64,000 bases of DNA from Marsupella aquatica (Eukaryota; Plantae; Marchantiophyta). The position numbers and the translations under genes are program-made. Positions 23,996 through 54,221 of the stretch are shown in pieces (position 1 is the stretch's first letter; each line of letters begins with the position of its first letter). The stretch spans positions 23,458,015 to 23,522,014 of the forward strand of contig OZ316893.1 in the NCBI GenBank assembly GCA_973895155.1. Direction: 5' to 3'. Below the pieces are notes generated by a model. That model saw only the letters and a program-made list of their open reading frames with translations. It did no database searches and was not told where the DNA came from.

Positions 23996-24012
23996 GGCTC
24001 GTGCTGATAACG
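23996..24012 (-). other. Primer-binding site CGTTATCAGCACGAGCC
   Basis: Lies immediately inside the 5' LTR. It is not a TGG-type PBS and resembles the Bianca-type PBS. Confidence 0.7.
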
Positions 24013-29511: not shown

Positions 29512-29792
29512 GATACGGCCATTCCCGGGCATTGAGCGAGCCGACCCAAGAAGAGGGATGGTTGCCGGTCGCGCAGAAGTGGCCCGGCACCGGTGGCCAA
29601 ACTTGGGGGCTCGGTCCTGCCTTTCAGGGGAGGTGGCTTGGGCCAATGGTCCGGGAGGGACAGTCTGCCCGAACTGTCCCCAAACTGCCCAAGACGCTAA
29701 TAAGGATTAATAAGGTGTAACCCGCAGAGCCTGACTGTCAATGGGCAATGTCGATGCATTAATGTGCATCGATATTGCCAATCGTGCTGAAT
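29512..29792 (-). repeat. MULE right TIR
   Basis: Reverse complement of 5084-5382. Confidence 0.93.
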
Positions 29793-30639: not shown

Positions 30640-31750
30640 GACTCAAGATCTCAAGTATTTGGATGAGAATGTCGCTGCCATTTCATCAATGAAACAATAG
30701 ATTACTTCTATGTCACCGCTTTCAACTAGCTTCCTACTACAGTGAGATTGAATATCAATGTGCTTGCTCCTATTGTGAAGCCGAGATGCTTCAAGCAAGC
30801 TAAAAGCACTTTGGTGATCACAATGAATGACGGCTCTTGCTTGCTGATGATGCAAGTCTCCAAGAAATCTTTTCAAGGTTCCACACTATCTTAGTGCATG
30901 CCTTTGATAAGACCATGTATTCTGCTTCGGTGCTAGACAAGGCTACAATTTTTTCCTTTTTGCTTGCCCAATTCACTATTGCATTTGAGAGCATGAAGCA
31001 GTAAGCAGAGGTTGATCTTGTTGTGTCAATATCTCCTTCCCAATCAGCATCAGTATATCCATGTAAAGGAATCAAAGATTTTGATCTTTTATACACCAAA
31101 CCCATACTTGATGTGCCTTTCAAGTATCAAAAAATCCGTTTCACAGTCACCCAATGCTTTGCACCGGGATTGGACATGAATTGTGTCAATGACCCAACTG
31201 CATAGAAAAAGTCAAGCTTTTTGCATATCATAGCCCACATGAGGCTTCCAACTGCATTTTGGTATGAAATATAGCCTCCATTTGCAACTTTTCATCTTTA
31301 GTTTGTGGGCTATCCTCCTTGCTTAGCTTTAAGCCTGACTCAACTGGAGTATGTACCACCTTGCAATTCTCCATGTTGAAAGTGCTTAATTTGTCCAAGA
31401 TGTATCTCTCTTGAGACATCTTGAGCCAACCCTCTATTTTGTTGCGAGAGATTTCCATACCATGACAATTATGTATATTGTCTGAGTCACTTATCTTGAA
31501 TTCCTTCATGAGTGCCCGCATGAGTGTCTTTTTGACTTTAGCTAACATGTTGGTGTCATTGCTTGCAAGTATGCAATCATCAACATATAGAGCTAATATC
31601 ACCAAATTTTCCTCCTGACTCATAATAGTACACATTTGAGTCAACTATGCACTTTCTAAAGCCAATGCTTAACAAGAAAGTGTCAATCCCCTTATACCAC
31701 AACCTAGAGGATTGCTTGAGGCCATATAATGCCCTCAATAGGAGGCAAGC
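30640..31750 (-). mobile_element. Decayed Ty1/copia remnant: RT C-terminal half and RNase H
   Basis: ALYGLKQSSRLWY, LALYVDDC, GYTDADW, ALSSTEAEY, RSKHIDI, with frameshifts. Confidence 0.85.
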
Positions 31751-34077
31751 CATACCATTTCAAGGTCAACAATTTTCTCCAACCACTTCCAACATAGTGA
31801 CGGACCAAACGGGAAGTGTGACCACCCAACAAGAAGTGTGTTTTGGATTTTGCCAAAAATGGCAAAAAATCCCATAAATTTATCTAAAAAACATGAATTT
31901 TAGTAAGAATCTGAAATTGGATCCAACATCGGATTCCAACTCGAGATACTTTCTAACCAAAACTGGCAAATCTCTATAATTTCTAATTTCTAACACTTCA
32001 TCTCTAAAATTAGGAAAAACTTTGAAACGCCTATAGCAACTAGTCCTCTCTCTTGTCACACCATTTTAGGTAGTGTTAGAGTGTATCGTACTATCTAGAT
32101 CCGTATGTTTGGTATGTGTGCTATATGAGCCAATAAGGTTCTGTTAGGTTTGTGTGAGAGAGTAGTTCTCTCTTGTGAGGCATTGAAAGGTTATCTTTCA
32201 ATGTTGAGCCTTGGAGAGGGGAGCTTGTGTGGTGGCTATGGTGGCTGAGAGCTCTCTCTATGTAGCGTGGATTCCTTGAGTGCAAGGTGCGTTGGCTCGA
32301 CATATGTGTGTGATCGGATCGGACGGGATTGAGTGCATATTGTTGGCGTCGATTGTTGTTTGGATTCTATTGAGATTACATTGAAAGATCAGATGCAAAC
32401 TCTGTTGTGCGGACTGTGCAAACAGAAGTTTGATACATATTGATTGAATTGGCAACGGCTCGTGGAAATCGTTTGAAGCTATTGAGTGGATCCATGGTAG
32501 CTTGGATTGTACTAAATAGATTGTTAGTATTTCAATCTGCTGCTGTTTGTGTCTTGTTGCCGAGCTGTTTTGAGAAGAGAAATTGCAGATCGCTCATTGT
32601 TTCGCCATATCTGTAAGGAGACTATATTGATCTGGGCACATGATGCTGCTGTTGAATGGGTAGCCAACTTTGAATGTTGTTTTTCGTGAAGGAAAGCACT
32701 TTGCAAATGTTTGCAAATCATTGAGTAGACGTTGGGCAGGCGCAGGTGAAGCGAGGGGTTGCTGCCAAACCCGAAGTTTCATGAAAGGGCCAAAGTCTAT
32801 CTGCGTTTTTCATAAAGGAAATGACTCGCAAATATTGCCAAATTTGTGAGGGCTGCAATCCGTAGATTCGGTTCGACAGGGCACTGCATTGACGCAATAG
32901 GCTGTCCGCTGCATTTCCGTGAAGGAAACTCAAGGCCGAAGTGTGGATGTTGCCGAATCTGGAAGTTGAGTCCGGAGTAGCGGGCGTGAAGGGCTCATCT
33001 CAGCGTTTTGAGGCTTCGAGGCAACTTGTGGTTACTCGGGACATGAGGGCGAAGCAAGAGCAGGCGGGCGAGCAAGCCAGCAGCAAGCCTGGTACGTGAG
33101 GAGAATTGCAAATGCTACCATTTTGGAGTGACAGATTTGGTGCATAATGACAAGTGAGAGGTCACCCATCCCAAAGTTATTCCTCCCCTCATGAGCTTAA
33201 CTAGCAAGTTCCTATGTGGTGCATTGTACATGCTTCCTTACACACTTGGTGTCTAAGGAATGAGGCCCTAGGGGTTTTATGCACTTTTGAATTCATCTAG
33301 CTACTCTATTTGAACTGTGATGGATTCTTGAATATTTGACGCGAGATTCTTGAGGCCTATTATGAAGGCCCTACATTGAACTATATGAACATTATTTTCA
33401 CGTATTTTTGATTGATGTGGAGAGTTGTGGTAAATCCGCTTCTTGTTGTTGGATCCTCTCCACACATGCTTCCTACCCATGCGCCATGTTTGTGTTGTGT
33501 GGCCGGGCGCTTGATTCCAGAGGAGTGATTTGCAACCGAACACTCTAGCTGTGCTATGTATTTCTCTCATGGTGATGTTGGAGTGATGCCCAACACACCA
33601 TGGTGAGTGCTTGTGGTGTTGGCAGGGACATATTGCCCTTAGAGTTAGCACATAGATTAGGTTAGGTTGATCACCATGGATTCTTCTGGTGCTGCTAGGC
33701 TACCCGATGGACGATGGACCGGTTTCACTCGGAGTGGGGCGCAGTTTCAGCCAGTGGCATTGGTAGCAGTCAGCGGTGCAGCTTCAGACAATGATTCCGA
33801 TGAGGACTTAGTGACCAATTCTCCTCGTCATCAGGTGGTTGCACCTTTGTTGTGGGATATGGAAGAGATGTACGGGGCTACAAAGGGCCCACGACGATAC
33901 TCTGGTGTAGTTGTCATGATTGATATGGTGTCACCTGCTTATCAAATGACTAACACAACAAACACCACATGGTTCCACTAAAAATTGTTTGTATCGTATG
34001 ACGGGGACGTGGAGGGACGCTATATGGATCAATTTCATACTAAGGATGAGTAGATTCGTTTTCGCTTCCGGAAATGT

Positions 34078-37000
34078 ATTTTTTGATCAAGTCTACCGAC
34101 TATACGTAATTTGCTTTTGATCAAGTCCCGTGGACTACCTTGCTTCTACTCCTCCTGGCCTTTGGCAAAGTGCTGTCACCACTCTCCCACTCACAGGGTC
34201 GACCAAGCCATGTAAGTTTCTCTAAATACTCATACTAAGGGAAGAACACAATCGTGCAACCAAGAGAGGGAACAACACACAAGAAGTCATGAAAATCCAA
34301 CCGAATCCATATCTATTAGTGGCCAAGGTAACACATTGCATGGGCAACCCGGTCTCCTATCGTCTACCCAACTCCTATCTCACGGGACAATGCGCCTCTC
34401 CACCTCAATACTCCGGATCAATTCCCTACTCTTGTTGAAGGCTAATCCTCACAAAAACAACACTAGACTGAGTTCCCCCTTGCTCCTACCGGGGGCTGCT
34501 GGTTAAATACTGAAAACAACAATACGTGAACACACAAGCCCTAGGGTGTGGCGGCGGTCACTGCCCTGGCTGGCCGCCATCCATTGGCGGCGCCGCTAAC
34601 CTAAAAGTTTCTACACATGCGGCACACACATGCACCCCTAATCCTATTGCTACCTAAGTGAGGCCAACGGTGCCTTCGTCGGCCATCACATCACCTAAAC
34701 CAAACTAAACTAAGTCCTATATGAGTAGGCCATGGCCTACCTTCCAACACCTCCCACTACTCTGGCCATGGAAATAGCCGAAAGTCGAAGTTGATCGAAA
34801 TCTGGTCCTGAGAAATTTTATGAGTAGCCACGGCCATCCTGATCGTAACCCTGAAAACGGCTCCCAAAACGGACATCAGACGCCCGAGATATGGCCTACC
34901 GAGTCCCAAACTCTAACCTGGCCACTACCGCGTCCAAATAGTCCGTACGGTCCCGGCCTCCCATCACGACATCAAAATGAAGTACCCTGGCCATGGCCAC
35001 ATGCCCTGACTTGGCCGGGTCACTTTCCTGAAGGTTGTACGGACGTCCGTACGGCGTCGGACCCTAATTCTTCACCAAAATGTTCCGGTCCGTATCTCTC
35101 TCATTTTAACTCCGTTTGAGGCGTGTCTTACATCGTTAGATTCAGCTCGACGAGCTCCTTCCAATAAGCCCATGATTTGGCCAGTTGGACATGTGCCCAA
35201 AACCAACCTCCGTACGGTCAACCTCCGTACCACTACTCATCCTCCTCGGACTCACTTACGGTGCCGGGGCTCCATCCCCGAGAGTCATCACTGGCCTCAC
35301 TGCCCCCTGGGTAGATGCAACACCTCCTCCCCTACTCTTCCCCGGGGTTGCCCTTCCCAACGTTTGGCCCGAGGTTCCTTGCTTCCGTAATGCCGCCAAA
35401 GCCTACCAAGCCCTGATGTATCCGTGACCGATGGTGTCCTTCCACAACGTTGTCTCCTCATCACCCCGCAATTCCAGTGGCAAGACTTGGCCCATGGCCA
35501 TGGGAGTCCCCGGGGTCACCGACCTAGGTGGCATACCAGCGGTTCCCTGGCCAGACGTTGCGTTCCTTAGTGCTTTGCGGGTTGACTTCAACTTACTTTC
35601 CAGGCTCTTGCACTTCTCCTTGTCCTTCTTGGTCGCTTCCAACATTGGCCCGTAAGTCTTGGTTACTTCGATGACCATTGCATCAATGGCCTTGGCCAAC
35701 ATCCCTGGTGAAGCAACGGGAGTAACACCGGGGGGACAGGGCTTCTTCCTCTTCCCTAGACTTAGGGCGTCGGCTCTCTTGGCCCTTGTCTCATAAGCAC
35801 TCACCTGGCCACGCAACTCTGAAATCTGCTTTTTGAGGGCATCCACGCCCTTTTCGGCTTGCTTCATCGTTACCAGCTCCTTTCTCAAAGCAACTACTTC
35901 CTCGGCCTCCTTGGCCTTTGTGGACAGGGCTCCTTGCAAGTGGCCAACTTGGTCATAGGCCTGCTTCAACAACCTACTCCTCTCTTGAATAGTCTCCTCC
36001 TTGGACAGTATGACCTCCTTCAGCGACTTGTGCCCAACTTGCAAGGTGGCCACCTTTGCATTGGCCCTACTCAGAGCCCACTTCATGGCTTTGCACAATT
36101 GCCAGCCCTCGTTAATAGCATCACGGTACTCTTGCAATTTTGCCAAGTATACCTCTGGAATGTCATACACAATGGGCTCCTCGGGATTACCAATCAAGGA
36201 CTCCAACCACTGCATGGTAAACTCTTCATCCATATCCTCCTCTTCATCCGGTGCCCCCTCCACCACGGGCTCAGTGGCCAGTTCCTTGGTGGGATCCGTG
36301 GTCAAATTCTGTACGACGGTGGTGGCAATCTTTCGTAAGACGGTGGGGAAGGAGGGCAATACTCCTTCCTCTGGTTCGGGCACTGAGATGAGCCCCTCCA
36401 TCCTGTTCAAGAGAAATGACCCAAGAAAATGGATGATTCCTCCAGGCTTGTGGCCTTTGGGATCTGCGGTCAGCGTTTTCCTCAAACCAAACACCCACCA
36501 TCCGTACGTGTGCTCCGGGTGCTGCTTGATGTCCAATGCAATGGCCAAGTGTTCCCTGTAATTATACTTGATTGCACCCGGCTGAGTATCCGTTGATGGA
36601 CCTTTCCAACAAAACCCCTGAGCGCTGGGTCCTTGAAGGATGCAAGGGAAATGTGTACCACAGAGGTAGCCTCCTTCACGTACATGGCCAGCTCTTCCAA
36701 TGTGAGTGTCCCTGGTGGCTCCATGGGGTAGAATGTCAGGTCCTGGTTGTGCAACATCAGCAACCGAGTCAATTCGTCACGAGGGAGGGTGCGCTTGATG
36801 CATGCAAAGTACAATCCATCATCCCGTAAGTCCATCCCATCCTCAATGTTCCAATGCCTATCCATTGGAGCACGCATGTCCACTCGCATTAAATTGATAA
36901 TCCCGGTGGATTCAAACAATTCACGGCTATCGTCCAGAAGCTTGGCCAATGTCTTGGGGTATGAACGTCGTTGAGTCCTTCGTGACATGGGTGCTTCACT

Positions 37001-38507
37001 GGTCCCTGACATTGTGGCCCTGGTTGCCAATTTCTCTTCTTCTTCTCTAGCTAGCTGCAAAGCGATGTACTCCCGGTAGGCCGCCTTGTACCTCCTAATG
37101 CGAGCGTTGGTGAACTCAGGTTTGTCTTGAGATCTCATCCACTCCACTCCCCCTCAAGAGCACAACCGGTGACCAATTCTCGTTCCTCAATTCCCAGAGC
37201 TTGGCCTCGTGCGGCCCCGTACCCAACCACGATAAAATAAATCAGGTTCCCTCTCCAAGTCCTTGTCAATCCCCACTCCAGCTCACTCCATGGCCACTCT
37301 CAGAATCACTCAAGGAAAATAGAGGTAGAACATGGCACCAAGAGGAAGGTTGATGAGGAGAAAAAATGAGGTTCGGCAATGAGTGAGGAGCGCAAAAAAA
37401 CTGAGAAAAAAGAGTTGGACAGGAGCACTTATGTAGGCCGCTCCTCCCCCTAGTTTCGCTCCTAATGGCCAAGGCCTCCCTTCCTGCCCTGCGTACCTGC
37501 TCAGCCCCAAATTTGGGGGGATCCCCTGGGATCCAAGGACCTTAACTGCCCCCTCCCCCTCGGACCTTCTCCACCAGGTTTGGGGGGATTTTAATCCCCC
37601 TTCCTCCTTACGCACCTGCTCCCCCAGGGTTGGGGCATTTATTATCCCCCTCCCCCTCATCTTCGCCCTCTCTCACTCCCTTTGGCGCGCATCCCTATGG
37701 GCGCCTTAATGGCCAACCCCCGTCCACCACCTTGGGGCCCGGTGCCCTATGCTCCCGAGTTTGAGGATCCCCCTGGGATCCAGGGGCCCTTAACTGCCCC
37801 CCCTACGTACCTTCTCCTCTAGGTGTGGGGGATTTTATTACTCCCCTCCCCCCTTACGCGCCACCTGCCCCTATGGCCGCGGCCTCCCCTTGGAAGGGGG
37901 ATTTAATCCCCATTGTGCCCCCTCCTAAGTCCGGGCCTCCCCTTGGCCGGCTCCTCCTTGCGCCTTCTTGCTCGCTCCTTACCGGGCTGGCTCCACTTAT
38001 GCTCCTCCTGGCCGGCTCCCTCTCCCGGGCCTTCTTTCCTGCCCCTGGCCAACTCCTTTTGAAAGGGGAATTTAATCCCCCCTTTGTACCCCTACAAGCT
38101 AAGGCCGGGCCTCTCTTTGGTCGGCTCCCTCTCCCGGGCCTCCTGCTTGCTATGGCCAGCTTCTTTTGGCCGGGGCTAATTTGTGTTGGGGTCCGTGTTG
38201 CTGGCCGGGGCACCTCATGCGACGCTTGGCCACTAACTTCTTTGACCGGCCCCCATACGTAAATACTAGGGTTGGTGATAAAAAATTTAAAGCTAGATAA
38301 TCCCCCGGCTCCAGCATGGAATGGCAATAGGGCACATGCCTTGGCCCGGACCGGCCAGCGGCCAACCCCCCAACTCTGAGGCTTGGCCAACAACTAAAAT
38401 TAAGAGGACATAAAAACCATCAATACTCACCTCATCTTATTGTACGTAAACTATCTTTTGGCGAGGTTGTAAGAGAACAAAAACTTGACACAAATCTATT
38501 TATTTAC
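34078..38507 (-). mobile_element. Unclassified 4.4-kb insertion in gypsy gag, flanked by ATGT direct repeats
   Basis: ATGT at 34074-34077 and 38508-38511. Removal restores gag FRFRKC-VRHYYPLK. Confidence 0.7.
35403..37147 (-). pseudogene. Coiled-coil protein of unknown function (221-aa and 381-aa ORFs joined by a frameshift near 36550)
   Basis: Two overlapping long ORFs with an acidic patch and a heptad-rich coiled coil. Resembles accessory/antisense ORFs of Tat/Athila-type retroelements (inference). Confidence 0.5.
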
Positions 38508-40007
38508 ATGTGTGCGTCACTACTACCCTTTAAAATCATTCTTTGGGACCATTGGCCCCGTCACATCTGGATGCTTCATACAGGAGTTTGATACGTGGTG
38601 CGATATGCAGACATTGCGTAACGCCACGTTGGTTACCCCTTTCATGGCATGGAAGGGATTATTTCAACATTTGGAGGGGCCACCCATGAATGACTACCAT
38701 GAGTTTTGGAAAGCTCATTTGGTTGAGATTGAGGGATGGAGGCAGCATATATTGGTCGCCTAAGTACGTGTCCATCACCTATGGCACTAGTGCAGCTGCC
38801 CAACCCATTGCCACAGCTGTTGCTTCTTCTAGCAACACTAGCAAGAGTGGCACACCATCCACCAGTAGCACTCCAGCAGCATCCACCGCTACTCCTGCCG
38901 GTGTGATTGTGACAGGGACTGGAGTTGTGAGGTGGAATTCTTTGAGGTGGAACTCCTGTGGTGGAATTCTTTGAGATATTAATTGAAGCAGAACTATCAG
39001 GGTGTGAGAACTAATAAGTTGAAGGGTCTCCAGGAGTTTCAGCGCAAGGCTAGAGAGAGTCTACGGGAGGCATACACTCGTATGCACAGATTGATCATTG
39101 TCACCAAGGGAGTGATAGAGGCTCAGACAGTCCAATTTTGGTATGCAATTCTGGACAAAGAATTGCGACGCAGAGTGAGAGATGTCACTTTGCTTAGGGA
39201 TGCAGATCTCACATTAGCAGTTGTTTTTACACTTTCTGAGCGCATTGAGCTCAATATGGTGAATGAGAGGGTGATGACTTCCGGATTTGCCAAGGAAGCA
39301 CCAAAGGTTGCATCTACATCCACACCACAACCTATTGCATGGAAGAGCCAAAGGGAGAAGCCTACTATACGAGAGTCTACCAGCTAGAGACCTGTGCCCT
39401 CTTATGCTGGACAACAGTCAGGATGTTGGACCTGTGGTGGGGATCATGCACAGAGAGATTGCTCAGATCATAGAGGATCAAGGGGAGCATCAGCAACAAT
39501 GTGATCATTGTGGAGCTCCTAGACACACCAAGGATAGGTGTTTCTCACTCCATCTTGAGTTACGAAGAGGAGGATCCCGTACACATGATCAGGGAAGAGG
39601 AGGAGGAGGTAGAGGTGGTGGACGTGGTCGTGGCATGCCACATGGAGGGAGACAAGGAGGTGACGCTGCCCCTGCTATAACCATAGATCCAAAGGATGCC
39701 TAGGATTGCTCAATTGGAGCAACAGCTAGCTGCACGCTATGGCTAGTTCCCAAATGAGACCTACTTTTGGTGATGGGGCATCTACATCCTATGGACCTTC
39801 CACATCTCATGGTCCTTCTACATCTTATGGAGTTGATGGAGACCTTGCCACCATGGGATTCATGTGTGGCACTACACATATTGATGCATCAGCAGCTTTG
39901 ACACGTGGAGCCAAAGCTCTTGAGCCCCAAGGAGTAGTAGTGGAGCTAGATCCACAGAGGAGGGATGCATGTCGGCAGACAAAGCTTACTCAGTCTTTTA
40001 CATTGAT

Positions 40008-40350
40008 CAATCTATTCATTAAAAGTGAATTATTATTCAATTTATGAACATTTGGGCAATAGAAAGTGCACATTTGGCCTTCAAAAAGTGTACTATTAGG
40101 CAAGAAATAAAGTTGATGGCCATCATATGTACCACCATGTTCATCCTTTATAAATGAACTAGGATGAGACTCCTTCTAGTCATTCAAGATCATTTTTGTG
40201 ACCTCAAGTTTACAATTGATCATTTAGGTGTATAGTATTATACCATAGTGTACCTTTTGGGTTTAAAAAGTGTACATTTAGAGACCAAAAAGTGAACATT
40301 TACAGGCCTAAAAGTGAACAAAATAAAATACACTTTTAATGAATAGGGTG
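40008..40350. mobile_element. MITE (~340 bp) in the gypsy
   Basis: TIR CTATTCATTAAAAGTG / CACTTTTAATGAATAG, AT-rich interior with AAAAGTG repeats. The TSD is ambiguous (AT or TGAT). Confidence 0.75.
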
Positions 40351-41510
40351 ATATTGTGAGAGACAGTTCAGACTATCTCTATGAACCCGGTTCGGACAAA
40401 CCCTAGCATTGGTAAGTTGACAGAATCAGGTAGTGATGCAGCAGGGATGACAGGTACCCTGCTGGGGGCGGCTACTGCCATAGTACGCACCGCATTATTT
40501 TCAACAACAGACATGCTGAACTTGGGAGTTGGTTTTGTAGAAATGTTCAGATTGACAGCTACAATCTATGAGGACACTCTAGTTGTTGCTTCCCATGCAG
40601 AAGCAACTTGCAGTGTTCAAGCAGTGAACACCATGCCACCTACTACTACTAGTGAGACATGGCATGCAACAGCAGCGAGGTTGGTGGATTTACCAGCACG
40701 CCCTGCATTTGAGAGGACTAGGTTTAAACCTAGTGTTGTGTCATTGGATAATCGGAGTGGTATCTTCCAATTAGTTGGGTCATCTGGAACAATATACAAG
40801 CCAGAGAGAGTGTTATTGGATACTGGTGCTCAGCCCTTGATGTTGGGGAAGTCTGCCATACATGGATTATGATTGCGTCCAAAGAATTTGGAGGATTGTC
40901 CCTTTCCCATTCAGACTTTATTGGGGGGACCTACACCTACACAGCATATCACTAGGAAACCACTTGATTTGAGGATTCAGGAAGGTCATGCGGTAGATAA
41001 CTCATAGATACAGGCGCAAGCTATTTTGACTAAAGTAGAGTCATATGATGTGTTGGTGGGATGTACAGTGCTCTACCCCATGGGATTTATTCTTGATTTT
41101 TGGGATGAATCAGTGTCATATAGACCTGATTGGCAGTCAGGAGATGCTCGATTGAGCAGGTTGCCAATGAAATTCAATGGACCTGTGGGAGGCCCTAAAT
41201 CCACACTATTGTCTTTGGCAGCATTCAATGGTGTAATTACTGGACCTGATAATTTGATTGAGGGTAATGCGCATGCAGCACATGTTCCACCATTGGAGGA
41301 GTCACATGAGGAGCAGAGATCATGTGGAGATTACCTGTTGGTAGTGTGATGCCACCAGTGTGGGGCATTGGACAGGCCTTGCCACAGGCAGCAGCACGAT
41401 TGGTACATGACGCATGGCGTCATGCTTTTACACCATAGTCAAGAGTAGAGCAGTCTTGTGCAGATGGACCGGTGACTCTTTCACCATTGGATACCACTCC
41501 TATTGCTTGG

Positions 41511-41886
41511 CAGGAGGGTTTTCACCGTGACAGCAAATAGCAAACAGATTTACTGTTACGAGCAAAAATTTTCCTGTTACGAGCAAAAGTTTACTGTTAC
41601 GAGCAAACTAGACAATCTAAAAATGTGTCATTAAAAGTCACAATTTTCAAAATAATTTAAAACATGACAACTTTTTGCTAGTGTAAGGCGATACTATTAC
41701 TAGCTCCGGGCGCTAGCCAAAAAATATCGACTCACAAAAAAAATTTAATATTTTTTCCCCAAATTTTTTTTCAAAATTTTGTTTTAGAAAAAAAGTTCCC
41801 AAAAAAGTTCCAAATTTTTTTCCACCCGTTTGCTGTTACGAGTAACTATTTGCTGTTTGTTGTTTGCTGTCACGGTGGTTATACCC
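41511..41886. mobile_element. MITE (~375 bp) just upstream of the DNMT domain
   Basis: Inverted CACCGTGACAGCAAA / TTTGCTGTCACGGTG, internal CTGTTACGAGCAAA x3, flanking CTTGG direct repeat. Removal restores PIAW-KYPSEG. Confidence 0.75.
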
Positions 41887-41889
41887 CTT

Positions 41890-42871
41890 GGAAGTATCCA
41901 TCGGAGGGTATTTGCTTGTTAGATCTATTTGGTGGGATTAGCACTAGATTGGCTACTGTTCTTCAGGCAGGAATTCCTATGCGTTGTTATTTGTATGTGG
42001 AGACAGATGAGACAGCACGAAGGGTCTCCTTGCGGCATGTAGCTATGTTGGTGGATAGATATCCATAGTTGCTGCCAGTGGATGTTGTTTGTGGTTATCA
42101 GCATGCACTACTTGCTAATATTTCATTGTTAGGGGCGGATCATTTGCATCGTGTTGGCCTCATTGATTTGGTGATTGCTGGTTGGCCATGTCAGGGCCAA
42201 TCTAGAGCTGGCGTTGGGCATGGCTTCATGATCCACGCTCTGCATTGTTTTGGGAGATGTTACGGGTGCTACATCATCTCCAGACACATCAGACACAGTC
42301 TCCAACATACACTTTGGAGAATGTGCCATTGTTAGGTGATGATCGTAGTCAGATTGTTGCCAATGTTCACCAGATGCGGTCTTGGATTGGACCTACTATG
42401 TTATTGGATGCTGCATGTGTGGGTTCTTGTGCACATTGTCCATGCTTATGGTGGACTAATTTGATCCCATGTGAGGTGCTGAAGTGCGCATTTGACAGCA
42501 TTTCACGCTCACTAGCCTTAGTGGTGGATGACATTTTGGATCCAAGGCATCGTGCACAGGGTGTGATCCAACCTGATAGACCTCCATTGGCAGTGGTCAA
42601 TGTAGTTGGGCGCCCACGTTGTGCATTACCCACTCTTGTGAGCCACTCTGCTTCATATGCATTCAGAGTAGGTGGTCCTGGACTTGTGTGGAACATAGCT
42701 CTCCAGCGGTTAGTGGAGCCTACTGCTGATGAGAGGAAGCGTGCTATGGGATTTTTGATAGGCACCACTATAGTTGCCTCAGTATCTCAGAGTTCACGCC
42801 GCCAGGTCCTTGGTCAAGCAATGGATTTGAATTGCTTGACTTGGATTATCAGCTTGGGAGTAGCTGAATAG
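41890..42871 (+). pseudogene. DNMT3-like C5 cytosine methyltransferase domain within gypsy pol
   Basis: Motif I LDLFGGIS, motif II YVETDE, motif IV DLVIAGWPCQGQSRAG (PCQ at 42186-42194), motif VI ENV (42317-42325), motif VIII-like AHCPCLWWTN, ERKRAMGF, motif X RRQVLGQAMD. One stop (42066-42068) and one frameshift (~42230). Confidence 0.88.
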
Positions 42872-43093
42872 TTGCGGATGCACTCTACTGGTGTTCCTGA
42901 TCGTCCATTAGTGAGCTTGCGGTCCATTGAGATAATGATGACCACAGCTGGGGGTGAGCAGACAGTCCATGGACCTATGGCAAGAGTGACCAAGGTTGGA
43001 CAGATTGTTGAGCAAGAAGAGACTGCTCAATCTACTACTAAATAACAATCATCGGCTATCTCTTCTACCCTACAAAAAGATATTAAGGATTTT

Positions 43094-46000
43094 GTGGAGA
43101 GTTGGGAGCCACAGATTGGTCCTAAGTTGACAAGGGAGGAGAGATGTCGCATGCATCAATTCCTGAAGAGTTACTGGAATTGTTTTGCATTCAGCATGAA
43201 GGATTTGGGGACATTGAAGGGCCCTGGTATTCAGATTGAATTGGCTAGTGATGCGCTAATCTTTTGTAGACCATACCATTATAGTGACATGGAGAGAGCT
43301 CTGATTCAAAGCAGAACTCAAGATTTGTTAGAGGCTGGATTGGTGGAGATTTCATATGGGGAATATGCATCTGCCACAGTGATGCCAGCCAACTAAGAAA
43401 GATGTGCATGGCGCGACAATTACACAGATAGGCGCATGTGTGGTGATTACAGACCTATTAATTGCCAAACAAATCTGATCGATATGCCATGCCCACACCT
43501 GAGGAGATCTTTGATGTTGTGGGGCATGCAAAGGTTTTCAGTTCATTGGGTCTGAGGGTAGGGTACCATCAACTTCCAATTAGGCATGCTGACAGGTCCA
43601 AGATAGCATTCTGGGGAATTGATTCTTATGATAAAGATCGTTTGTATTAGTGGTTGTTCTTACCATTTGAGTTGAAGAATGCACCAGCTGAGTTCCAAAG
43701 AGTCATGGATCGAATCCTTGCAGATTTGGATTTTGTCAAATGTTATATTGATGATATTTTGGTCTATTCTTGTACTGTGGAAGAACATCGACAACACTTG
43801 CAGATTGTGTTGGAGAGATTGAGAGCACATGGGTTGAAGCTCCATCCTGGCAAGTGTAAGTTCTTCGAAGACTAGATTGAGTATTTGGGCCACACTATAT
43901 ACCCAAGGGGATTGGGTGTACAACAGACTAAAGTGGAGGCCATTACACAGATTCCTCGTCCTACTGATGTGAGTAGAGTTTGTGAATTCTTGGGATTGAC
44001 GAGCTACTATAGGAGGTATGTTAAAGGATTTAGCCAGCTTGCTAAACCTTTAACCATACTCACTAACTAGATCAGGAATGGATTTGGGGTGATGATCAGG
44101 AGCATGCCTTTCAGGAGTTGAAGCAAAGGTTGGCATCATCCCCTATTTTGAGAAGACCCATTTTAGGTAGACCATTTCGATCAGCTACACACTGATTGGA
44201 GTGGAGTAGCACTTGGAGCAGTGCTGACTCAGAAAGATGATGAAGGGCATGAGTTTGTTGTGGCATATGCTAGTAGATCAAACAATTCAGCTGAGGCTAA
44301 AACAAGAAGCCTTAAAGGGTGAGTAACAAGCCCAAACTCTAAGCACTCTCGTAAAAAAATTGCAGAAACAAAGAAAATGGCAAAAAAGTGGCCAAAAATA
44401 CTACCTGTTTTTTGACAAAATTATAAAACAAACTGAAAGTATTAAAATGACACACTTTTTTCACCATCTCCTAATTACAAAATGATCTCAACTTACTTTT
44501 GATAAAATTACTACCTATAATTTTACTATGCCATTTTAGCAATTTTTACCAAAACATGATTTGTATTTTTAACAAATGATCAAATTACCTCCATAATTTA
44601 TTAGACTTGGGAAATTTTCAAATTCATAAAATATGATCTCTTTTTGACTCTCCAACATGCGCCCCTTCACTCTTTGAGGAAGACTTTTCAATGGAAGATG
44701 ATATCTCCACAAATTCACCACCTACGCTTCCAGATGTACCCGTTCTGATCCAAATCAGATCACTCAATGGCTCCTCTTTTACTCTCAACCTGGCTCTCAA
44801 CATGCCTGAGTTTGATTTGTTAGGCAACATCTGAATTTCACAAACATATTGACCCAACTGGGCTCCCCCAACCTCTTCTTGGGGACCTCTTCCAAATTCT
44901 TATTCTTCCCCTTCAAGTTAATTTCTTGATATTGATTGGCTTCCAATCTCAGCCAAATGATGCAAGTGTGCCCGGGTGACCTTCTTGTGATGATCCTTTC
45001 CTTGCCGGAATTATTTGCAGCCTCAGTAGGTCTTCTTGTGTCCCCGCTTGTGTCAGCGCTCTTACACCTTCCTGGAATTTGAGAGATGTCAGACGACCAT
45101 ATTCACTCTCTCCCCTTGGTGCTTGTTGCAATGCTTGACCTTTCCAAAATGCACAACAATCTGGTTTTGAGACAGGACTTAGTGTTTTTAGAAACTTGTT
45201 ACAATCGGTCTTCATGAATTCATGAGTCCGCTTTCTCAACTGTCCACTATCTTGAAGACCCTTGAGTCGGACACCCAAATTAACACTAGTCTCAACCACA
45301 TGGGATAGAACTTAACGCCCGGGGAGGCTAGTGCTCTCAAATGAGTGGGAAGAACTTAATGTAGACAAAACACACAAAAGAGCAAAAACCCTTTAACTTG
45401 AAACAAATGAAATAACATGTTTTCATGAATAGAGGACGCCTATTTGAACTTAATTGGTCCTTTCTCTAATTTAAATGAATAAGAAATGCTTAAATCATTT
45501 TTCAATAATTAAGCCAATCCTTTCATGACATAGATGAACAAGTCAAGGAAAAAGTTGAAAAAATTATATTTCCAAAAGTTTTTTATGACACAACACTTTA
45601 TTAATTAGTCTTCTTGGCTACTAGGTGGTATCCTAGTCCTTTGACTTTTTGGCTTGTTGGGCAACTTAGGGCTTCTTTGGGCCTTTTCCCTTCCCCATAC
45701 CTCCCTTTACTAGATTGCTCAATTATTAATCTCACAATATTGTTTGGACTACGCAATCCAGTTTACTTGGAGAAATAAATCATTTTTAGGTTTGCATTCC
45801 CACGTTTCATGAGGATAAACATTGGCATTAAAAACCCATATGTTTTTGCCCACCAGTAAAAACCCATATGTTTTTGCCCACCAAGATACGTACTTCCATG
45901 ACTCATGATTGGAGAGTTTGTCTTGTTGACCTACTGTTTCCATATGCTTTTTGGAATATTGGCATTTGGAGCACTTTTTGCTTTTATTTCACCATATTTT

Positions 46001-49000
46001 TTGCATTTCTTGAGATTGAGTGGTTTGTCTTTATCCCCTTTTCTTTCACTTTTGAAGTCTTTCTTTTGGCTATTCTGGAGATTCTCTCCCTAAGATACCT
46101 TATTCTCTTTCATGAATTCATGAAGGGGCTACCACCTGGGAAACTGAGAAACCAAAAGCTTCATGAATTCATGAACCCCAAAACTGGTTGTGACAAAATA
46201 CAAAGGGCAAAGACTCTGTTGCAGGCTCAATGACCTACAAAGGGCTAGGGTAGCCAATTGGCTATGGCAAAGGAGGCTGCGGCCTGGAGAGGGCTATTGC
46301 CCCTCACTTAAGCTCAAGTCGCATCAAGGTGCTGTCATCAGCTGCCGATTGAGGTCAGGCCTAATTTATGGTCTGGGAACGACTGCTAATCTCTGCTGTC
46401 GCCTTCAAAATCCTGAAGCTGAAATTTTGAATTCCTGGTTTGATGTTGATGCTTTGATTGCTGGATTTCACCTGAGTGTTGGACTTTGATTTCTCAGATT
46501 TGGTTATTGAATGAGCTTCTACTGTGATTGACTGCTGCTTGAATTAGCTGTGGTAGACTCTGATTAAATGAGACAGATTCCAATTAGGGGAGATAGCCAC
46601 AAAGGATCAGGGATAATTTGTGAAAAATTGAGCTTGAGAGCTAGATCTCAATCGAGCAGACCTAAGGATTGAAGGGGGAGCGAGTGGAGGATGGGAGAGG
46701 GAGCAAGGGAGATTGGAATGGGATTGATAAGGATTGGAAGGGGATTGGAAGGGGATTGGAAGGGGGGCCATTTAGGGATTGGAGGAGGGTGGACAATCGA
46801 CCGTCAGGGGAACGATCAACCATCAGAGGGGGATGGAGCACCGGAGGAGGGCAGTCGAGCATCAAGGGGATGATCAAACATTGGAGGGGGAGCGGTAAAA
46901 GATCGGGGGGGGGAGGGTTTAGGATTGGGGAAGGGTTTCACTAATCAGGGACCGGGGGAGGGCCGATCGGGAATCAAGATTGATCCAGGGAGGATTAAGG
47001 GTTGACCAGGCCTGGTCTGGGTCAAAATTGAGTCCAAGGTGGGTGGATTGGGAGCAGAAGCAAAGAGAACTATCGAGCTTGGGGGAACTAACTGGAGGGA
47101 GCTAGGAGGATCAGGTAGCTTCTTTCAGGTGAGAACCCGGCTTCATGATTTCATGAAGCCAGGTGGCTGCCCAAATCAAACTCGATGTACATTTCAATAT
47201 TGGTATGGATCAAGAGAGTGGGGAGGACGTGAAGCGCACCAGAGTAGAGGGTGCAACAGAAGATGTAACTATTGAGCTAGCTCGGATTGAAGCAAGGATC
47301 TTCTAGAAGTGGAGAGGAGGTTAGAGAAGCCTTAGATTAGTTGAGTTGCATTGTATTTAGAGATTTAGTGGACTTAGATGCACACCTACAATGGATAGTG
47401 GCATTCTAATTAAGATTTTGAGTTTGTAATTAAGTATGGATTTGTTGTTTTTGGTAATTGTGAAAATGATGTTGAAAATATCCCAAGATTTTCATTGAAA
47501 GAATTATAATAGCAAAGTTCACAAAACATGTTTCATTTTTATATGTTTTTTTAAAGCACTTTTGGAAAAATCATGAAAATCTTGAAAAAGGAATTCGGGC
47601 CTTGGACTCATCCCTTAAGGCTCCATGTTCTAAGTATAGCTCTTATGAGGGAGAGTGTTTGGCAGTAGTGTGGACTGTGGAACACTTCTGCTATTACTTG
47701 TTTGGTAATCCTTTCACTTTGATCACTGATCATCAGCCTCTCAAGTGGTCATCAGCCTCTCAAGTGGTGAATGGAGTCTGACAAGCTTACTCGAAAGCTT
47801 GCAAGATGGGCACTGTTGTTGCAGGAGTATGATTTCCAGATTGTACATAGACCTGGAAAGGTGAACTTGGATGCAGATGGGTTGAGCTGCAACCCATGTA
47901 CCAGTCAACAGGATGAGACTGGAGCCAAATGGCATGATGAGTTAGATAAGGAGATGGTGCCAGGATGGCATATATGCATCTGCCTTTCTTTGTTGGGTGC
48001 CAACATACAATGGATCTGTGGACTCTACCTCATTGGATGGAGTGGACGAGGCTTCAGATGTGGATGTTGGTGAGGTAACTTCTGGACAACAAGATATTCA
48101 CAATGATGTGAGAGTGTTGGAATATTTGCATAGTGGTTCTATTGTTGGCAGTGTTGATGCCAAGGAACGTGACAGGGTTCTACAGAGAGCCAAGAGGTTT
48201 TGATGGGAGGGAACCATCTTCTAAGAGTACTGCGTGATGGTAGGGTGTTCGTGGTACCAAAACCATCACAACGAGTACATTTGGTGCGACATGCGTACGA
48301 GGAGTTGGGTCACTTTGGTGTGAAGCGCACTTACAGCTTGTTGCAAACACAGTATTGGTGGCGTGGTATGCACACTCATGTCAAACAATTGATAGCTAAG
48401 TGTGTGGTATGTGATAGAGTGAGAGCATCATTTAATGCTCCCACTCCCCAGTTGCATTTGTTGCCGATCATGGGTTTGGGATATCGTTGGAGTTTGAATT
48501 TTATTGGTCCATTACCTGTTACCCAACGTCATAATCGGTATGTTTTGGTCATGGTGGAGCACTTCTCCAAGTTGATTGAGCTAGTGGCGTTGCCAGATAA
48601 AGCCAATGGAGGAGTTGCTGCTACATTTTTGGATTGCATACTCAGTCATTTTGGAGCACCAGCTGAGGTGTTGACTGATCAGGGAACTGAGTTTCATGGA
48701 GAGTTTGAGAATTTGTGTGAGCAAGCTCTGATTGATCATCGTACTACCTCTTGTGATCATCTTGAGGCAGATGAATTAGCTGTAAGAGTTGTGCAAACTA
48801 TGAAGAGAGGATTGCGTAAGTATGGCTTGCAAGTTGGTCATCTGGGAGATTGGGATCTCCAACTACCTTGGTTAGCTATGGGCTACCGTTTCAGTTGGCA
48901 AACATCACTTGCATCCTTCTCACCTTACTTTTTGCTCTATGGTAGAGAGCTAGATTTGCCAGCAGCCATTTGTCGTGATGCATTAGTTGTGAACTTGGAT

Positions 49001-49153
49001 GATCCTGATGTTTGGGTCAAGGTGTGTTCAGAGAGAGCACGGGTATTTCAGCGAGTGATGCCCATGGCTTTTGACAACCTTGCCATTGCCCAACATCGTG
49101 ATACTTTGAAGTATGCCACTATTCGTGGAGGAGGTTATCGTGCAAGCATTTGA
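43094..49153 (+). pseudogene. gypsy RT-RNase H-integrase, decayed and split by the 44301-47629 insertion
   Basis: RMCGDYRPIN, GYHQLPI, PFELKNAPAEFQRVMD, YIDDIL, FLGLTSYYRRYVKGF, TDHQPL, LARWALLLQEYDF, and an integrase core. Confidence 0.92.
44301..47629. mobile_element. Non-autonomous TIR DNA transposon (3.3 kb) with 4-bp TSD CTAA
   Basis: Imperfect ~33-bp TIRs AACAAGAAGCCTTAAAGGGTGAGT / ACTCATCCCTTAAGGCTCCATGTT. CTAA at 44297-44300 and 47630-47633. Removal restores RNase H NSAEAK-YSSYEGE. Confidence 0.85.
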
Positions 49154-49395
49154 TGATTTTATCCTATTGATTATGTTTATTTGCAGCAAACAGCACCCAC
49201 AACACTTGATGTGACCGTAGGCCGGACAATCTTACATGTGCGTGAAGTGTTGCCTTCTGGTGTCCTGATTTTGGAGGGACGCGATGGTATGGTTTGGAAG
49301 GATCATGTGCGCAACTGTGCACCATGTCACCTTCCCAACATTGATGGTACGGTAGATCTAATTCAAGCTTGGCACATGTTTGTGCTGGCTTGAAA

Positions 49396-49536
49396 TGTAT
49401 GTTGTGTGGATCTTCTCAGGGAGCAGCTACTATGTTGATTTGTGATAAGTGTTCTAGAGGATGGCACATGTCGTGTTTGACACCACCATTGCAGGTGATT
49501 CCTAGTGGATCATGGTTGTGTTCTCAATGTTGGTGA
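49396..49536 (+). pseudogene. PHD finger at the C-terminus of the gypsy integrase
   Basis: Hand translation CMLCGSSQGAATMLICDKCSRGWHMSCLTPPLQVIPSGSWLCSQCW* gives a canonical C4-H-C3 with the conserved W. Confidence 0.9.
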
Positions 49537-49713
49537 ATCCGACTAGTTATCAGTTTGTGTTCTCTTGGAAGATATGGATTGCAGGTAGGTGATCGATGGG
49601 GCTCACTTGCACCCGACCTCCTGATCTTCACACCTAAAAAGGTGTATATCAACCTTGTAGAACTCATGGCTAGCTAGAATTAGGGGACTTTATTCCCAGC
49701 TAGGGGGGGCGAT

Positions 49714-50172
49714 TGTGGGTTTTGGACATGTGTGGACATGAGTTCCACTTGTATTCCATTATCTTGTGTTTGTGATGTGGCAGTGTGACTATGTGTGGAT
49801 GTATGTGACAAGCGATGTATGTTGTGTAGCGATGTGTATGCGCACGACAACTGTCACACCATTCTAGGTAGTGTTAGAGTGTATCGTACTATCTAGATCC
49901 GTATGTTTGGTATGTGTGCTATATGAGCCGATAAGGTTCCTTATGTGAGAGGGTAGTTCTCTCTTGTGAGGCATTGTTCAAAGGTTATCTTTCAATGTTG
50001 AGCCTTGGAGAGGGGAGCTTGTGTGGTGGCTATGGTGGCTGAGAGCTCTCTCTATGTAGCGTAAATTCCTTGAGTGCAAGATGCGTTGGCTTGACATATG
50101 TGTGTGATCGGATCGGACAAGATTGAGTGCGTATTGTTGGCGTTGATTGTTGTTTGGATTCTATTGAGATTA
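49714..50172 (+). repeat. gypsy 3' LTR (5' LTR copy at 32054-32380 is 5'-truncated; extra partial copy at 50174-50276)
   Basis: Starts TGTGGG just after the PPT. About 320 bp are highly similar to 32054-32378. Confidence 0.75.
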
Positions 50173-50276
50173 TTGTGGGTTTTGAACACGTGTGGACATG
50201 AGTTCCACTTGTATTCCATTCTCTTGTGCTTGTGATGTGGCAGTGTGACTATGTGTGGATGTATGTGACAAACGAT

Positions 50277-51538
50277 ATAGATTGACCGTTCCCTAAGTAT
50301 ACCATTCAGGAATGTTGTCTTCACCTCTAAAAGGATGGCCTCAAGGTCATAAAAAACCACCAAGGATAGAATGAGCCTTATAGATGTGATTTTCACTACT
50401 GGCGAAAAAGTATCCAAATAAAAAACCCCATAGACTTGAGAGTAGCCTTTGTATCTAACTTGCAATACTTCCATCCGGGTTATACTTCAACTTGAAAACC
50501 CACTGGCAACCCATCACTTTTTAATTCTGACTATGGCCATGTGTTGTTTTCCTTCAATGAGTGTAACTCATCATTAATGGCTTTCCTCCAGTGTTCTGCA
50601 TCTAGTCTTGTAAGTGCCTCCTTCAAAGAAATAAGTTCTACCGTTCTTGGACCAGATTCAGTCACTAAGGCCACAATGGCTGAATTGGAGTCAAAACCAT
50701 ATCTTCTCATTGTATCTTCTTCATCTTTCCCCTTCCAAATTTTGGTTCTGAAAATTCAATGTGAGTAGAGGTATCATCTTCTATTGAACGTTCAAATTCA
50801 TCAAAAGGTGTTGCAAAATGATTCTGTGGACATGGATCATGGTAGTGGACTATAACTTGGTTGTGGTTCTCTTGTAGTAGATGTGCCTGAAATTTCAAGA
50901 GCCTCTTCTCTAACATAACCTGGTGCATTAGCTCCCACTTGAGCTATTTAAGGTCGGCTAGTGCTAGTGTTGGTGCTCCCACTGGACCTGATGCCGGTGC
51001 TAGTACTGGTGCTCCCACTGGAGTTGGTGTTGGTGCTAGTGCTATTTGAAGATCGAATAGCATCGGATCATCCAACTTTGAAGTAACTGGTCCTTTTCCA
51101 CCGGGTTGGTCCTCTTTAAATCAAACGTCTCTTATCACAATCACCTTGCGATCGGTTGTTCGTTGAACCCTATAGACATCTCTTGATGTTGAGTCTTCTG
51201 GATATCCCAAAAAAGATGCAATCTTCGGGATGATTGACTTCCCTCGATGGTTTTTGTTGATGTTAAGATGCATTATACATCCAAAAACCCTGTGATGTGA
51301 TAAGTTTGGTTTTTTCCCATACTAAGTTAAGCTCATATGGTGTCTTGTTGACATCTAGTGCTTTTGTGAGTGTTCAATTTTGAAGGTAATTAACTGTATG
51401 AATAGCTTCCCCCAATAGGATTGAGACAGACCTGAATGATTCAACAAAGATAGAATCGACTCCACTAGTGTTCTATTATTTCTTTTAGCTAATCCATTTT
51501 GATGAGGAGCCTTTGCAACTGTAAATTGCCATCAATGT
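50277..51538 (-). mobile_element. Decayed Ty1/copia remnant: integrase 3' part and RT N-terminal half (same element as 30640-31750)
   Basis: KGYSQVYG..YLDTFSPVVKITSIRLIL, EVKTTFLNG, PHQNGLAKRNNRTLVES. Collinear with the fragment on the other side of the gypsy. Confidence 0.8.
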
Positions 51539-52445: not shown

Positions 52446-53144
52446 CGTCTCTAGTCACCATTTTCCGTCATCTGCCACACACACTATCAGCAATCTATAT
52501 AAGGAGCTAGTAGCATTCCCATCTTCCTCATTCTTCATTCTTCACATCCTCTTTCATTCTCTCTCGCCTTGTTCTGCAATCGTTCCGTCCACTGCAGCCC
52601 TATTGTCGGCAGATCTCAACAACTTCGTGAGCTTGCTTTGGTGGACCCATTCCCGTTGTTGTATCTTTCGACATCTCTCTACAATTCTCTTCAAGATAAT
52701 TGAGTTCTCTCAATCGAATCTGGAATCCAGTTTTGGTGCTTCACACGTTGTAAGCTTCTTGCACGATTGTAGATAAAGTATTCAATTTAACTTAATGTAG
52801 TACTTTGGGGTTTAGCAGGTCGATTTGCGTTCCTATTGTTGAGAGGTTGAAGGCAAGTCAGTCGATATTCTGTGTTATTCAGTCTGCCATTGGCTGTCCA
52901 GAAAGTAGTCATCTGCGCCGTTTGCTACACTGTAAACAGACATTGTCACGGTTTTAGTAACCAAGTTTTAAGTCCGAATCTGTCAACGTTTTTTGGCTTG
53001 CGCTCGAGCTAGTACAATTGTATTCACTGCATTTATCTGCTTTCAGTCATAGGGAAGATCTGGAGGTACCTGATCACGGTGAGAATTCGATTTTCTCTTT
53101 GATTTTGCTAGGTTTCTTTCCAGGAAATTATACCCGACTTTACA

Positions 53145-54221
53145 ATGGGCTCTCAAGGCATTTCTTCTGTGTATGAGGAACTTCTTCCTGGCATCCCGGA
53201 TGACGTTGCTTTAAACGAGATTGCTACAAAGATCGCAGGAAAGGATGTGGGTACCTTGTCTTTAGTAAGTCCTCGATGGCGACAAGAAATTCAGCATCGA
53301 GTGGTCTATGACTCGAGACTGCGAAGGTGTTCCACAGATACTCACGTAGTCCTTCGAGTGTGGGGTCGCTGGTTCAATGGATTTTGTCTTTATTCCTTGA
53401 CCGACCACACTCTGCATCAATTTCATCGACTCCCAAACCGTCGCTTTTCGTTCCAGTTCATTACCTTGGATGGTAAATTATATGTCTTAGGAGGAGAAAG
53501 CTGGTGGACCGAGAGAAATCCTGAAAATGATTCCAGAAAAGTATTTGTCTTGGATTTGGCTGGACAACAGAAGTGGAAGGAATGTGCAAGTATGCTGCAA
53601 CCACGACGAGAGTTTGGATGTGGTGTCATGAATGGGAAGATTTATGTATTTGGTGGTAGTTCTGTCGGCTACGGGCATCATCCAGAAGGCGCATCAGAGG
53701 TGTATGACCCGGAGCTGGACGCTTGGTCCCCGGTAAAGAGCATGCCACTAGGGGAAATGAGCCATATCGTTAGACCCGTAGGTGAAGAGCTTTTTGTGCA
53801 AGGTCGGGATCCATCTCCATTTCAAGTTTACCATCCAGGTAGTGATCAGTGGCGAACCCTGGAGCTGAGAGGATATGCGCGACGAATGTTCATTTTCCGC
53901 GGAGAATTCTATAAGTTCAGTGAGCATGGCATTGAAATCTACGACAATGAAAACAGTTTGTGGATACTTCGGTGTTATATCTCATGTGATGAACTTGGAC
54001 CGGTTCATTCTGTAGTGATTCATCCCAAGTTTATTTTACCTGTGAATAACGAGCTGTTAGCGAACATGAGTTGGTGCAATGCAGCGAACCGAACCCAGGG
54101 AAACTCTCTGCTTCTAAGTTCCGGCTTCGGGGGCAGGGGCCAGGACGTAGTGTGGCGGAAAGCACCACTCACTTTTGAATATCAAACGTTGAGTGATTTC
54201 ATGTGCCTTGTTGAGCTTTGA
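53145..54221 (+). CDS. F-box/kelch-repeat protein (array copy 2)
   Basis: Intact 358-aa paralog of 3014-4108 with the same F-box and kelch motifs. Confidence 0.92.
   Translation: MGSQGISSVYEELLPGIPDDVALNEIATKIAGKDVGTLSLVSPRWRQEIQHRVVYDSRLRRCSTDTHVVLRVWGRWFNGFCLYSLTDHTLHQFHRLPNRRFSFQFITLDGKLYVLGGESWWTERNPENDSRKVFVLDLAGQQKWKECASMLQPRREFGCGVMNGKIYVFGGSSVGYGHHPEGASEVYDPELDAWSPVKSMPLGEMSHIVRPVGEELFVQGRDPSPFQVYHPGSDQWRTLELRGYARRMFIFRGEFYKFSEHGIEIYDNENSLWILRCYISCDELGPVHSVVIHPKFILPVNNELLANMSWCNAANRTQGNSLLLSSGFGGRGQDVVWRKAPLTFEYQTLSDFMCLVEL

Follow-up and report, generated by a model that had tools for sequence, protein, structure and literature searches.

A DNMT3-like methyltransferase as a family trait of split-repeat Ty3/gypsy retrotransposons in liverworts and other green plants

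Introduction

Why retrotransposons keep DNA methyltransferases is a question that has stood since 2018, and the known hosts are hard to work with. That DNMT-bearing retrotransposons exist, as the original prediction stated, is on record: by the published account, KnitGypsy-Dnmt3 of Klebsormidium nitens combines DIRS-type repeats with Gypsy domains, and SymbioDIRS-Dnmt3 is a further case (de Mendoza et al. 2018, PMC5890265). In yeast the SymbioDIRS-Dnmt3 domains gave de novo CG methylation; the KnitGypsy-Dnmt3 domain gave none, a result that the authors call inconclusive (PMC5890265). Later papers cite the Klebsormidium case under "streptophytes". One of them, a recent preprint, describes EpiLTR and DAM-LTR, LTR elements with captured DNA methyltransferases and a chromatin reader, and sets "streptophytes (Gypsy-DNMT3)" apart from these as something found earlier (bioRxiv 10.64898/2026.05.21.726589). 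The supplement of PMC12344493 gave no match for the Gypsy-DNMT3 case, and the passages on Phygy and Selgy that were searched contain no mention of a methyltransferase.

Here we analyse a Ty3/gypsy element in the window, the whole 64-kb stretch of DNA under study. It resembles KnitGypsy-Dnmt3, as described in the accessible text, in its intronless, unrearranged DNMT3-like domain within a Gypsy element, its DIRS-type repeats and the purifying selection on the domain, and the K. nitens protein GAQ93235 has the order CCHC-PR-DNMT and lies on the same side of the unrooted DNMT tree. It differs in its land-plant host and in an apparently far higher copy number. It also differs in that, where those authors place the DNMT in one ORF with reverse transcriptase (RT) and RNase H, the domain here ends ORF1 at a conserved stop, in the same frame as RT and joined to it in one protein only by readthrough. 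Target-site duplications (TSDs), a junction palindrome and a PHD finger are absent from the accessible text of PMC5890265.

Other comparisons are partial. The A1-B1-A2-B2 split direct repeats recall PAT, Ngaro and TOC (PMC4157794, in the text available), and the DNMT3-like domain recalls SymbioDIRS-Dnmt3, but unlike these tyrosine-recombinase elements the family has a DDE integrase, TG..CA ends and 4-bp TSDs. The order PR-RT-RNase H-integrase, the PPT-like tract, the TG..CA ends and the TSD are those of canonical Ty3/gypsy elements (Metaviridae), which nevertheless have a pair of full LTRs and lack the extra DNMT and PHD domains. EpiLTR and DAM-LTR share the pairing of a methyltransferase with a chromatin reader, but by the preprint's text they carry DAM, a DNMT4-related domain and a chromodomain. 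Troyka was rejected as the identity of the element, having CG..CG ends and a 3-bp TSD and occurring only in animals. The gypsy-DNMT3 concept is thus already published. In the literature searched, which falls short of most subscription journals and of Repbase, there is no report of land-plant members, of DIRS-like split repeats combined with TG..CA ends, of their TSDs, junction or post-DNMT stop, or of an integrase PHD finger in KnitGypsy-Dnmt3-type elements, so that the land-plant members and their repeat-end and translation anatomy are unreported within that coverage.

Anatomy of the element

The Ty3/gypsy element spans 32054-50279 and carries gag, protease, DNMT, RT, RNase H, an H2C2/rve integrase and a PHD finger. 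Its coding parts and later insertions are as follows.

33676..33912, + strand: start of ORF1 (gag N-terminus), by translation; its end matches the start of Marchantia protein P0003
33913..38544 (limits approximate), unstranded: later nested insertion or insertions splitting gag; gag homology restarts at 38533, and depth is low
38545..40001, + strand: body of gag, frameshifted, with two CCHC-type knuckles (39424, 39500); tblastn to P0003
40002..40353, unstranded: small AT-rich insertion, skipped by sister contigs (joint 40001-40353)
40354..41513, + strand: end of gag, aspartic protease (LLDTGAQ, 40813-40833) and linker; tblastn to P0001/P0003
41514..41886, unstranded: MITE with terminal inverted repeats and a near 8-bp duplication on either side, by sequence; skipped by sisters
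43046..44296, + strand: RT and the beginning of RNase H, interrupted by stops and frameshifts; RVT_1 E 5e-22, RT_RNaseH E 4e-9
44297..47630, unstranded: 3.3-kb TIR-bounded insertion splitting RNase H; joint 44296-47630 in 4/4 runs, X1 depth 1.1-1.9k
47631..49390, + strand: rest of RNase H, H2C2 zinc domain and DDE integrase; Integrase_H2C2 E 1e-15, rve E 1e-11
49396..49533, + strand: PHD finger at the integrase C-terminus; PF00628 E 1.4e-12

The nested block within gag has a depth of mostly 1-4k in run X1, against 130-280k over the coding parts. Pfam finds Asp_protease_2 in the relatives P0022 and P0023; in L040 it is below cut-off. The RT region begins at ~43100 and contains CYIDD at 43741 (YIDD at 43744), and Ty3 Gag-Pol is the nearest solved structure of the family pol (E 4e-98). 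The DDE triad of the window integrase is damaged: when its translation is set against relatives, the first Asp is replaced by Asn and the Glu position by Val. The PHD finger has DPF3, CHD4, PHF12, KDM5B, PHF21A and AIRE as its nearest solved neighbours, and the fingers of DPF3, CHD4, KDM5, PHF21A and AIRE are readers of unmethylated H3K4. Pfam matches to BMF, Med13_C and Laminin_II in the window were below cut-off and were taken as chance.

Two observations concern the surroundings of these parts. Within the GC-rich gag insertion, a 457-codon coiled-coil-like ORF (35403-36776, - strand) matches no Pfam family above cut-off. The element as a whole interrupts an older Copia remnant (30818-31787 and 50280-50640), and one contig of run X3 joins 31787 to 50288 across the entire element.

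The methyltransferase domain

Translation of 41800-44400 places motifs I-X of a C5-methyltransferase on the + strand in canonical, unpermuted order from 41919 to 42826; the motif numbers below follow the C5-methyltransferase convention.

41895..42870, + strand: DNMT3-like C5 cytosine methyltransferase domain, intronless; broken by two stops and one frameshift, with the motif VIII arginines lost
41919-41936, + strand: motif I, LDLFGG (translation)
41994, + strand: motif II, YVETD (translation)
to 42194, + strand: motif IV, IAGWPCQ (translation)
42314, + strand: motif VI, LENVP (translation)
42422, + strand: motif VIII, GSCAHCPCLWW, with Cys in place of both R-x-R arginines in the window copy
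42731, + strand: motif IX, ERKRAMGF (translation)
42809, + strand: motif X, LGQAMD (translation)

The original prediction, an intronless domain with its motifs in order between protease and RT, is confirmed by this translation, with LLDTGAQ at 40813 upstream and RT from ~43100 downstream. Its placement of the domain in pol stands only in part: the DNMT does share the strand and does lie between protease and RT, but it ends ORF1 at a family stop at 43043 and does not simply belong to pol. The small MITE (~41514-41886), a TIR element skipped by sister contigs, is indeed the sole insertion adjoining the DNMT, and the copy is dead as claimed, with stops at 42066 and 42869, a frameshift near 42223-42236 and both motif VIII arginines changed to Cys.

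The proposed profile search with a PF00145-type model was weak on the broken window DNMT, with DNA_methylase at E 0.014 (below cut-off) and no match for the second piece. It was clear on the closest relative, P0001 (E 5.8e-12), which is 77% identical to the C-terminal piece of the window DNMT. In phmmer searches of the PDB, P0001 matched DNMT3A (4e-11), DRM-type enzymes (1e-6) and HaeIII (5e-5), its best solved relatives being DNMT3A/3B. An AlphaFold model of the relative P0007 (pTM 0.76) gave DNMT3A/3B as best Foldseek matches (DNMT3A E 2e-18). Among phage enzymes of IMG/VR there were only distant C5 methylases, with short matches at E 6e-12 or weaker. Sequence and predicted fold alike thus support the DNMT3-like identity first proposed, the domain being nearer to DNMT3 than to DRM or bacterial enzymes.

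A family trait

The search for relatives retrieved 30 longer ones, among which Marchantia polymorpha contributes at least ten gene models and Calypogeia fissa and three species of Sphagnum are also represented; a wider search with P0001 as query returned 280 proteins with E-values of 1e-30 or below. PR-DNMT members with a named source also occur in Closterium, K. nitens (GAQ93235) and Mesostigma. Metagenomes yielded 65 loci, of which L062-L065 were left out as short weak matches, leaving 61; where the flank sufficed, protease lay upstream in 37/45 and RT downstream in 33/39, although these counts overstate independence because many loci are near-copies of one moss-type family or the same insertion. 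Sister elements therefore carry the DNMT at the same position, both in Marchantia, Calypogeia and Sphagnum and at the metagenome loci, as the original prediction needed them to. Across 197 domains, the catalytic Cys motif is kept in 178, the E-N motif in 167 and R-x-R in 187.

The DNMT domain is under purifying selection between families, as judged from dN/dS values of 0.09-0.18, similar to those of the protease (0.09-0.33), with RT lower (0.03-0.10). Between near-identical dead copies the DNMT value is 0.86-0.94, with one close pair at 0.43. Trees of DNMT and of RT-RNase H agree on 15/21 and 19/27 strong splits, and both group L040 with L049 (whose DNMTs are 47% identical to the query), then L050, then the bryophyte rows. 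In the DNMT tree the window domain groups with Calypogeia, Marchantia and moss-type sequences, in a starred clade of 10 rows. All 29 PR-DNMT rows lie on one side of a starred branch and 14 type II rows on the other, with the basal forks open and no outside root; the RT tree does not exactly repeat this type I/II split, because the divergent P0227 groups with two type II rows.

Could a single dead element simply have received a host DNMT3 retrocopy, or some other chance insertion? The DNMT3 likeness, and nothing further, speaks for this, and we find it scarcely credible. The domain holds the same position from Mesostigma to mosses, the DNMT and RT subtrees are concordant within the clade, selection on the DNMT is purifying, and the host enzyme MpDNMT3b (Mp5g09290) is absent from the matches. 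A nested host retrocopy is excluded by shared position, concordant trees and purifying selection, and on this comparative evidence the predicted DNMT is a trait of the family.

Sister copies in sequencing runs agree with this. In 4/4 runs the summed contig depth over the DNMT was similar to that over RT and integrase (in X1, 161-196k against 178-194k and 223-285k), and about a hundredfold that over the RNase H insertion (1.1-1.9k). Such sums do not measure copy number, and the source sample may be X1. Sister contigs lack the RNase H insertion in 4/4 runs and the MITE 5' of the DNMT in 2/4. Their differences from the window copy in X1 are mostly A>G (219) and T>C (185), against 70 and 74, as expected if the window copy decayed by cytosine deamination. 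The family is apparently very abundant and may occupy a large part of some bryophyte genomes.

A second architecture, RT-RNase H-DNMT-integrase-PHD, was also seen (P0026, P0029, P0030, P0045, P0060 and others). It accounts for 97/222 DNMT-bearing rows, cluster members included, and has its own side of the DNMT tree.

The stop closing ORF1

Between the DNMT and RT lies an in-frame stop.

43043..43051, + strand: family-wide in-frame stop ending ORF1, TAA-CAA-TCA in the window copy, in a readthrough-type context

Such a stop occurs at 36/36 pattern-found DNMT-RT junctions (35 loci and the window), 16-20 codons 5' of the RT start motif. CAA follows it in 34/36, and two junctions show double stops. 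The contexts vary by lineage: TAA-CAA-TCA in the window, TAG-CAA-CCA/CTA in L023 and L054, TAG-CAG-TTA in L039 and L040, and TAG-CAA-TCA in L049. This pattern agrees with the TMV-like readthrough motif UAG-CAR-YYA (PMC3542737, in the text available); the exact CARYYA fit is found in only 4/36 pattern-found junctions, and 30 moss-type copies end in C, not A. A search after the stop and in B found no conserved RNA structure (z -1.8 to +1.1).

The uninterrupted copy L040 has an ORF1 of 1369 codons (PR, DNMT) and an ORF2 of 1047 (RT, RNase H, integrase, PHD), and 64/74 PR-DNMT proteins have no RT match after the DNMT. The stop is not universal, since in six ENA proteins (e.g. P0036) one frame runs through DNMT and RT with no stop. 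In four gene models from Marchantia and Sphagnum the DNMT is fused to RT, apparently through a predicted splice that bridges the stop. On this pattern the DNMT ends ORF1 (Gag-PR-DNMT) and would be made at Gag levels, and pol likely needs readthrough.

Four PR-DNMT proteins, the Klebsormidium protein and three related ones (P0074, P0095, P0375 and P0061 in all), end 12-13 residues past the DNMT, hinting that ORF1 stops right after the DNMT in those four as well; P0074 is marked partial.

Split repeats, junction and target duplications

The ends of the element are built from two repeats, A and B, each present twice.

32054..32378, + strand: repeat A1, the 5' end of the element, starting TGTCACAC; 93% to A2 (blastn)
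49700..49711, + strand: CTAG(G)n purine tract, PPT-like, directly 5' of B1; the same tract stands before B in L035, L041, L040, L049 and others
49712..49849, + strand: repeat B1, ending ...CACGACA; 94% to B2 (blastn)
49846..49855, + strand: internal B1/A2 junction GACA-AC-TGTC; most sister depth has GACA-GC-TGTC, a perfect palindrome
49852..50171, + strand: repeat A2 (blastn)
50172..50279, + strand: repeat B2, ~30 bases short at its 3' end (blastn)

A1 and A2 differ by 13 substitutions in 317 aligned bases, every one a transition. This DIRS-like A1..B1-A2-B2 layout is present in the window, with B2 short, is complete in L035 and is seen in part in L041 and L003; split repeats thus replace two complete flanking LTRs. 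L035 reads AAGG, TGTC-A1, genes, purine tract, B1, GACA-GC-TGTC, A2, B2-GACA, AAGG. All three insertions with both ends visible have 4-bp TSDs (AAGG in L035, and TGTG and CACA between L013 and L032), whereas no target duplication is readable in the window copy because its B2 is shortened at the 3' end. Relatives have TG..CA termini, apart from L013, which starts TC. The 5' A copies run into the leader in 15/15 cases and never into B (three pairs are the same insertion).

At the junction, 49850 reads G instead of A in 101k of 115k summed depth (X1). Among six junctions the central bases are GC in three and GT, AT and AC in one each, all of them C>T/G>A changes of GC. L040 and L049 have the purine tract and the junction as well, and the distance from pol to junction is under 500 bases. 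At 49849, just past CACGACA, sister contigs part from the window sequence and continue in unrelated DNA; three runs show 42, 21 and 48 such contigs, with an agreement of 0.37-0.38. L008, L013, L024 and L007/L014 have a single B, with no A2-B2, at their 3' end. We rejected cutting at the internal junction as the source of these ends: the 3' flank common to L013 and L041 occurs both with and without A2-B2, which later B1xB2 recombination or assembly collapse is enough to explain. Pfam found no tyrosine recombinase in 12/12 leader frames, and the 64-kb window contains no tRNA genes.

Proposed role and mechanism

We infer, from sequence and models, that the DNMT, a predicted enzyme, is packaged with Gag and methylates the element's own new cDNA before integration, probably at CG; on balance this is the reading we lean towards, if only slightly. 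RT-RNase H-integrase-PHD would be made by UAG readthrough, leaving the DNMT far more abundant than RT and integrase, and protease would free the DNMT inside the particle. Plus-strand synthesis would start at the purine tract 5' of B1. Transcripts would lack the outer stretches of both A1 and B2, and the B1-GC-A2 block inside the element could be the template restoring both ends, as in PAT/Ngaro. The DDE integrase may then cut after CA on both strands of GACA-GC-TGTC to give ordinary processed ends, the staggered cut of the palindrome leaving CA-3' ends with two-base overhangs. Such ends are described as the usual integrase substrate (PMC1636480), and foamy-virus integrase is reported to cleave a palindromic LTR-LTR junction (PMC1180852). 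The PHD finger would tether integration to nucleosomes with unmethylated H3K4, and the new copy would arrive already methylated in TE-like chromatin, for host MET1 to maintain. Depletion of CpG is no sign of self-methylation, because the o/e of the window element (0.26-0.36) is matched by a neighbouring CACTA element without a DNMT (0.29).

At Gag-level amounts, the enzyme could act in trans as well. That it acts mainly there or at the target, methylating genomic copies or flanks and so damping its own family or competing elements, or causing heterochromatin to spread where the element inserts, seems unlikely to us. The ORF1 position implies large amounts of DNMT, the integrase bears a chromatin-reading PHD, and host-benefit and slow-down models appear in the text of de Mendoza et al. 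(PMC5890265). However, Pfam finds no targeting domain on the DNMT itself, and an abundant untargeted de novo enzyme should be costly, yet nearby host genes have a CpG o/e of 0.80-0.97.

It is less probable again, in our estimation, that the DNMT serves the split-repeat replication route. In that role it would bind or methylate cDNA, for instance at the palindromic junction, and thereby direct integrase to the regenerated ends and away from the internal copy, or else it would protect a long-lived circular or single-stranded intermediate. By the published descriptions, a methyltransferase and split or DIRS-type repeats do come together in KnitGypsy-Dnmt3, SymbioDIRS-Dnmt3 and DAM-DIRS, the junction centre varies only as C>T/G>A of GC, and the foamy-virus precedent applies here too. 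Yet the central C stands in a CHG context that host CMT could methylate, and Ngaro is reported to have split repeats without a methyltransferase (PMC4157794). A job other than DNA methylation, be it RNA methylation, nucleic-acid binding or particle structure, would fit the negative yeast result reported for the Klebsormidium domain (PMC5890265); with the catalytic motifs broadly kept and the fold closest to DNA-bound DNMT3A/B, we give it a slim chance.

Beyond the favoured self-methylation of cDNA, it is tempting to speculate on the family as a whole. It may represent an ancient green-plant lineage of hybrid replicators, from Mesostigma to liverworts and mosses, with DIRS-style split repeats and no LTR pair, a DDE integrase cutting a regenerated palindromic GACA-GC-TGTC junction, a DNMT3 at Gag stoichiometry via a leaky stop methylating cDNA within the cycle, and a second branch in GC-rich hosts with the DNMT moved beside integrase. 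We offer this combined picture tentatively, and think it rather more apt to fail than to hold in full.

Split repeats, a DDE integrase and TSDs together point to an undescribed route to integrable ends, and LTR-finder pipelines would miss elements with split repeats. At least ten annotated loci of Marchantia polymorpha belong to the family, while the accessible text of the published DNMT inventory lists host enzymes only. With its methylation mutants and methylomes, Marchantia would allow a direct test of cDNA self-methylation.

Neighbourhood of the element

A SET-domain ORF (13175-13990, + strand; PF00856 E 6e-6, 27 bits, above cut-off) lies 177 bases 5' of a CACTA Tnp2 transposase ORF (14167-16647, PF02992) and is possibly a transposon-borne histone-methyltransferase-like gene. 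A very young Copia element occupies 18336-24209 (- strand), with 100% identical 197-nt repeats and ORFs of 1056 and 544 aa. Long inverted repeats at 5084-5382 and 29512-29792, 94-97% alike and 24 kb apart, lie on either side of the CACTA and Copia elements and probably form the TIRs of one large DNA transposon that contains both.

Four F-box/kelch paralogues are present (2903-4108, 53112-54221, 55190-56400 and 61628-62800). The one searched has its best named matches in Calypogeia fissa (48%, E 2e-102), which bears out the suspicion that the host is a land plant. Together with the clade in which the window DNMT falls, this makes a leafy liverwort the likely host. A tandem-repeat array of ~35-nt units lies at 57619-58127.
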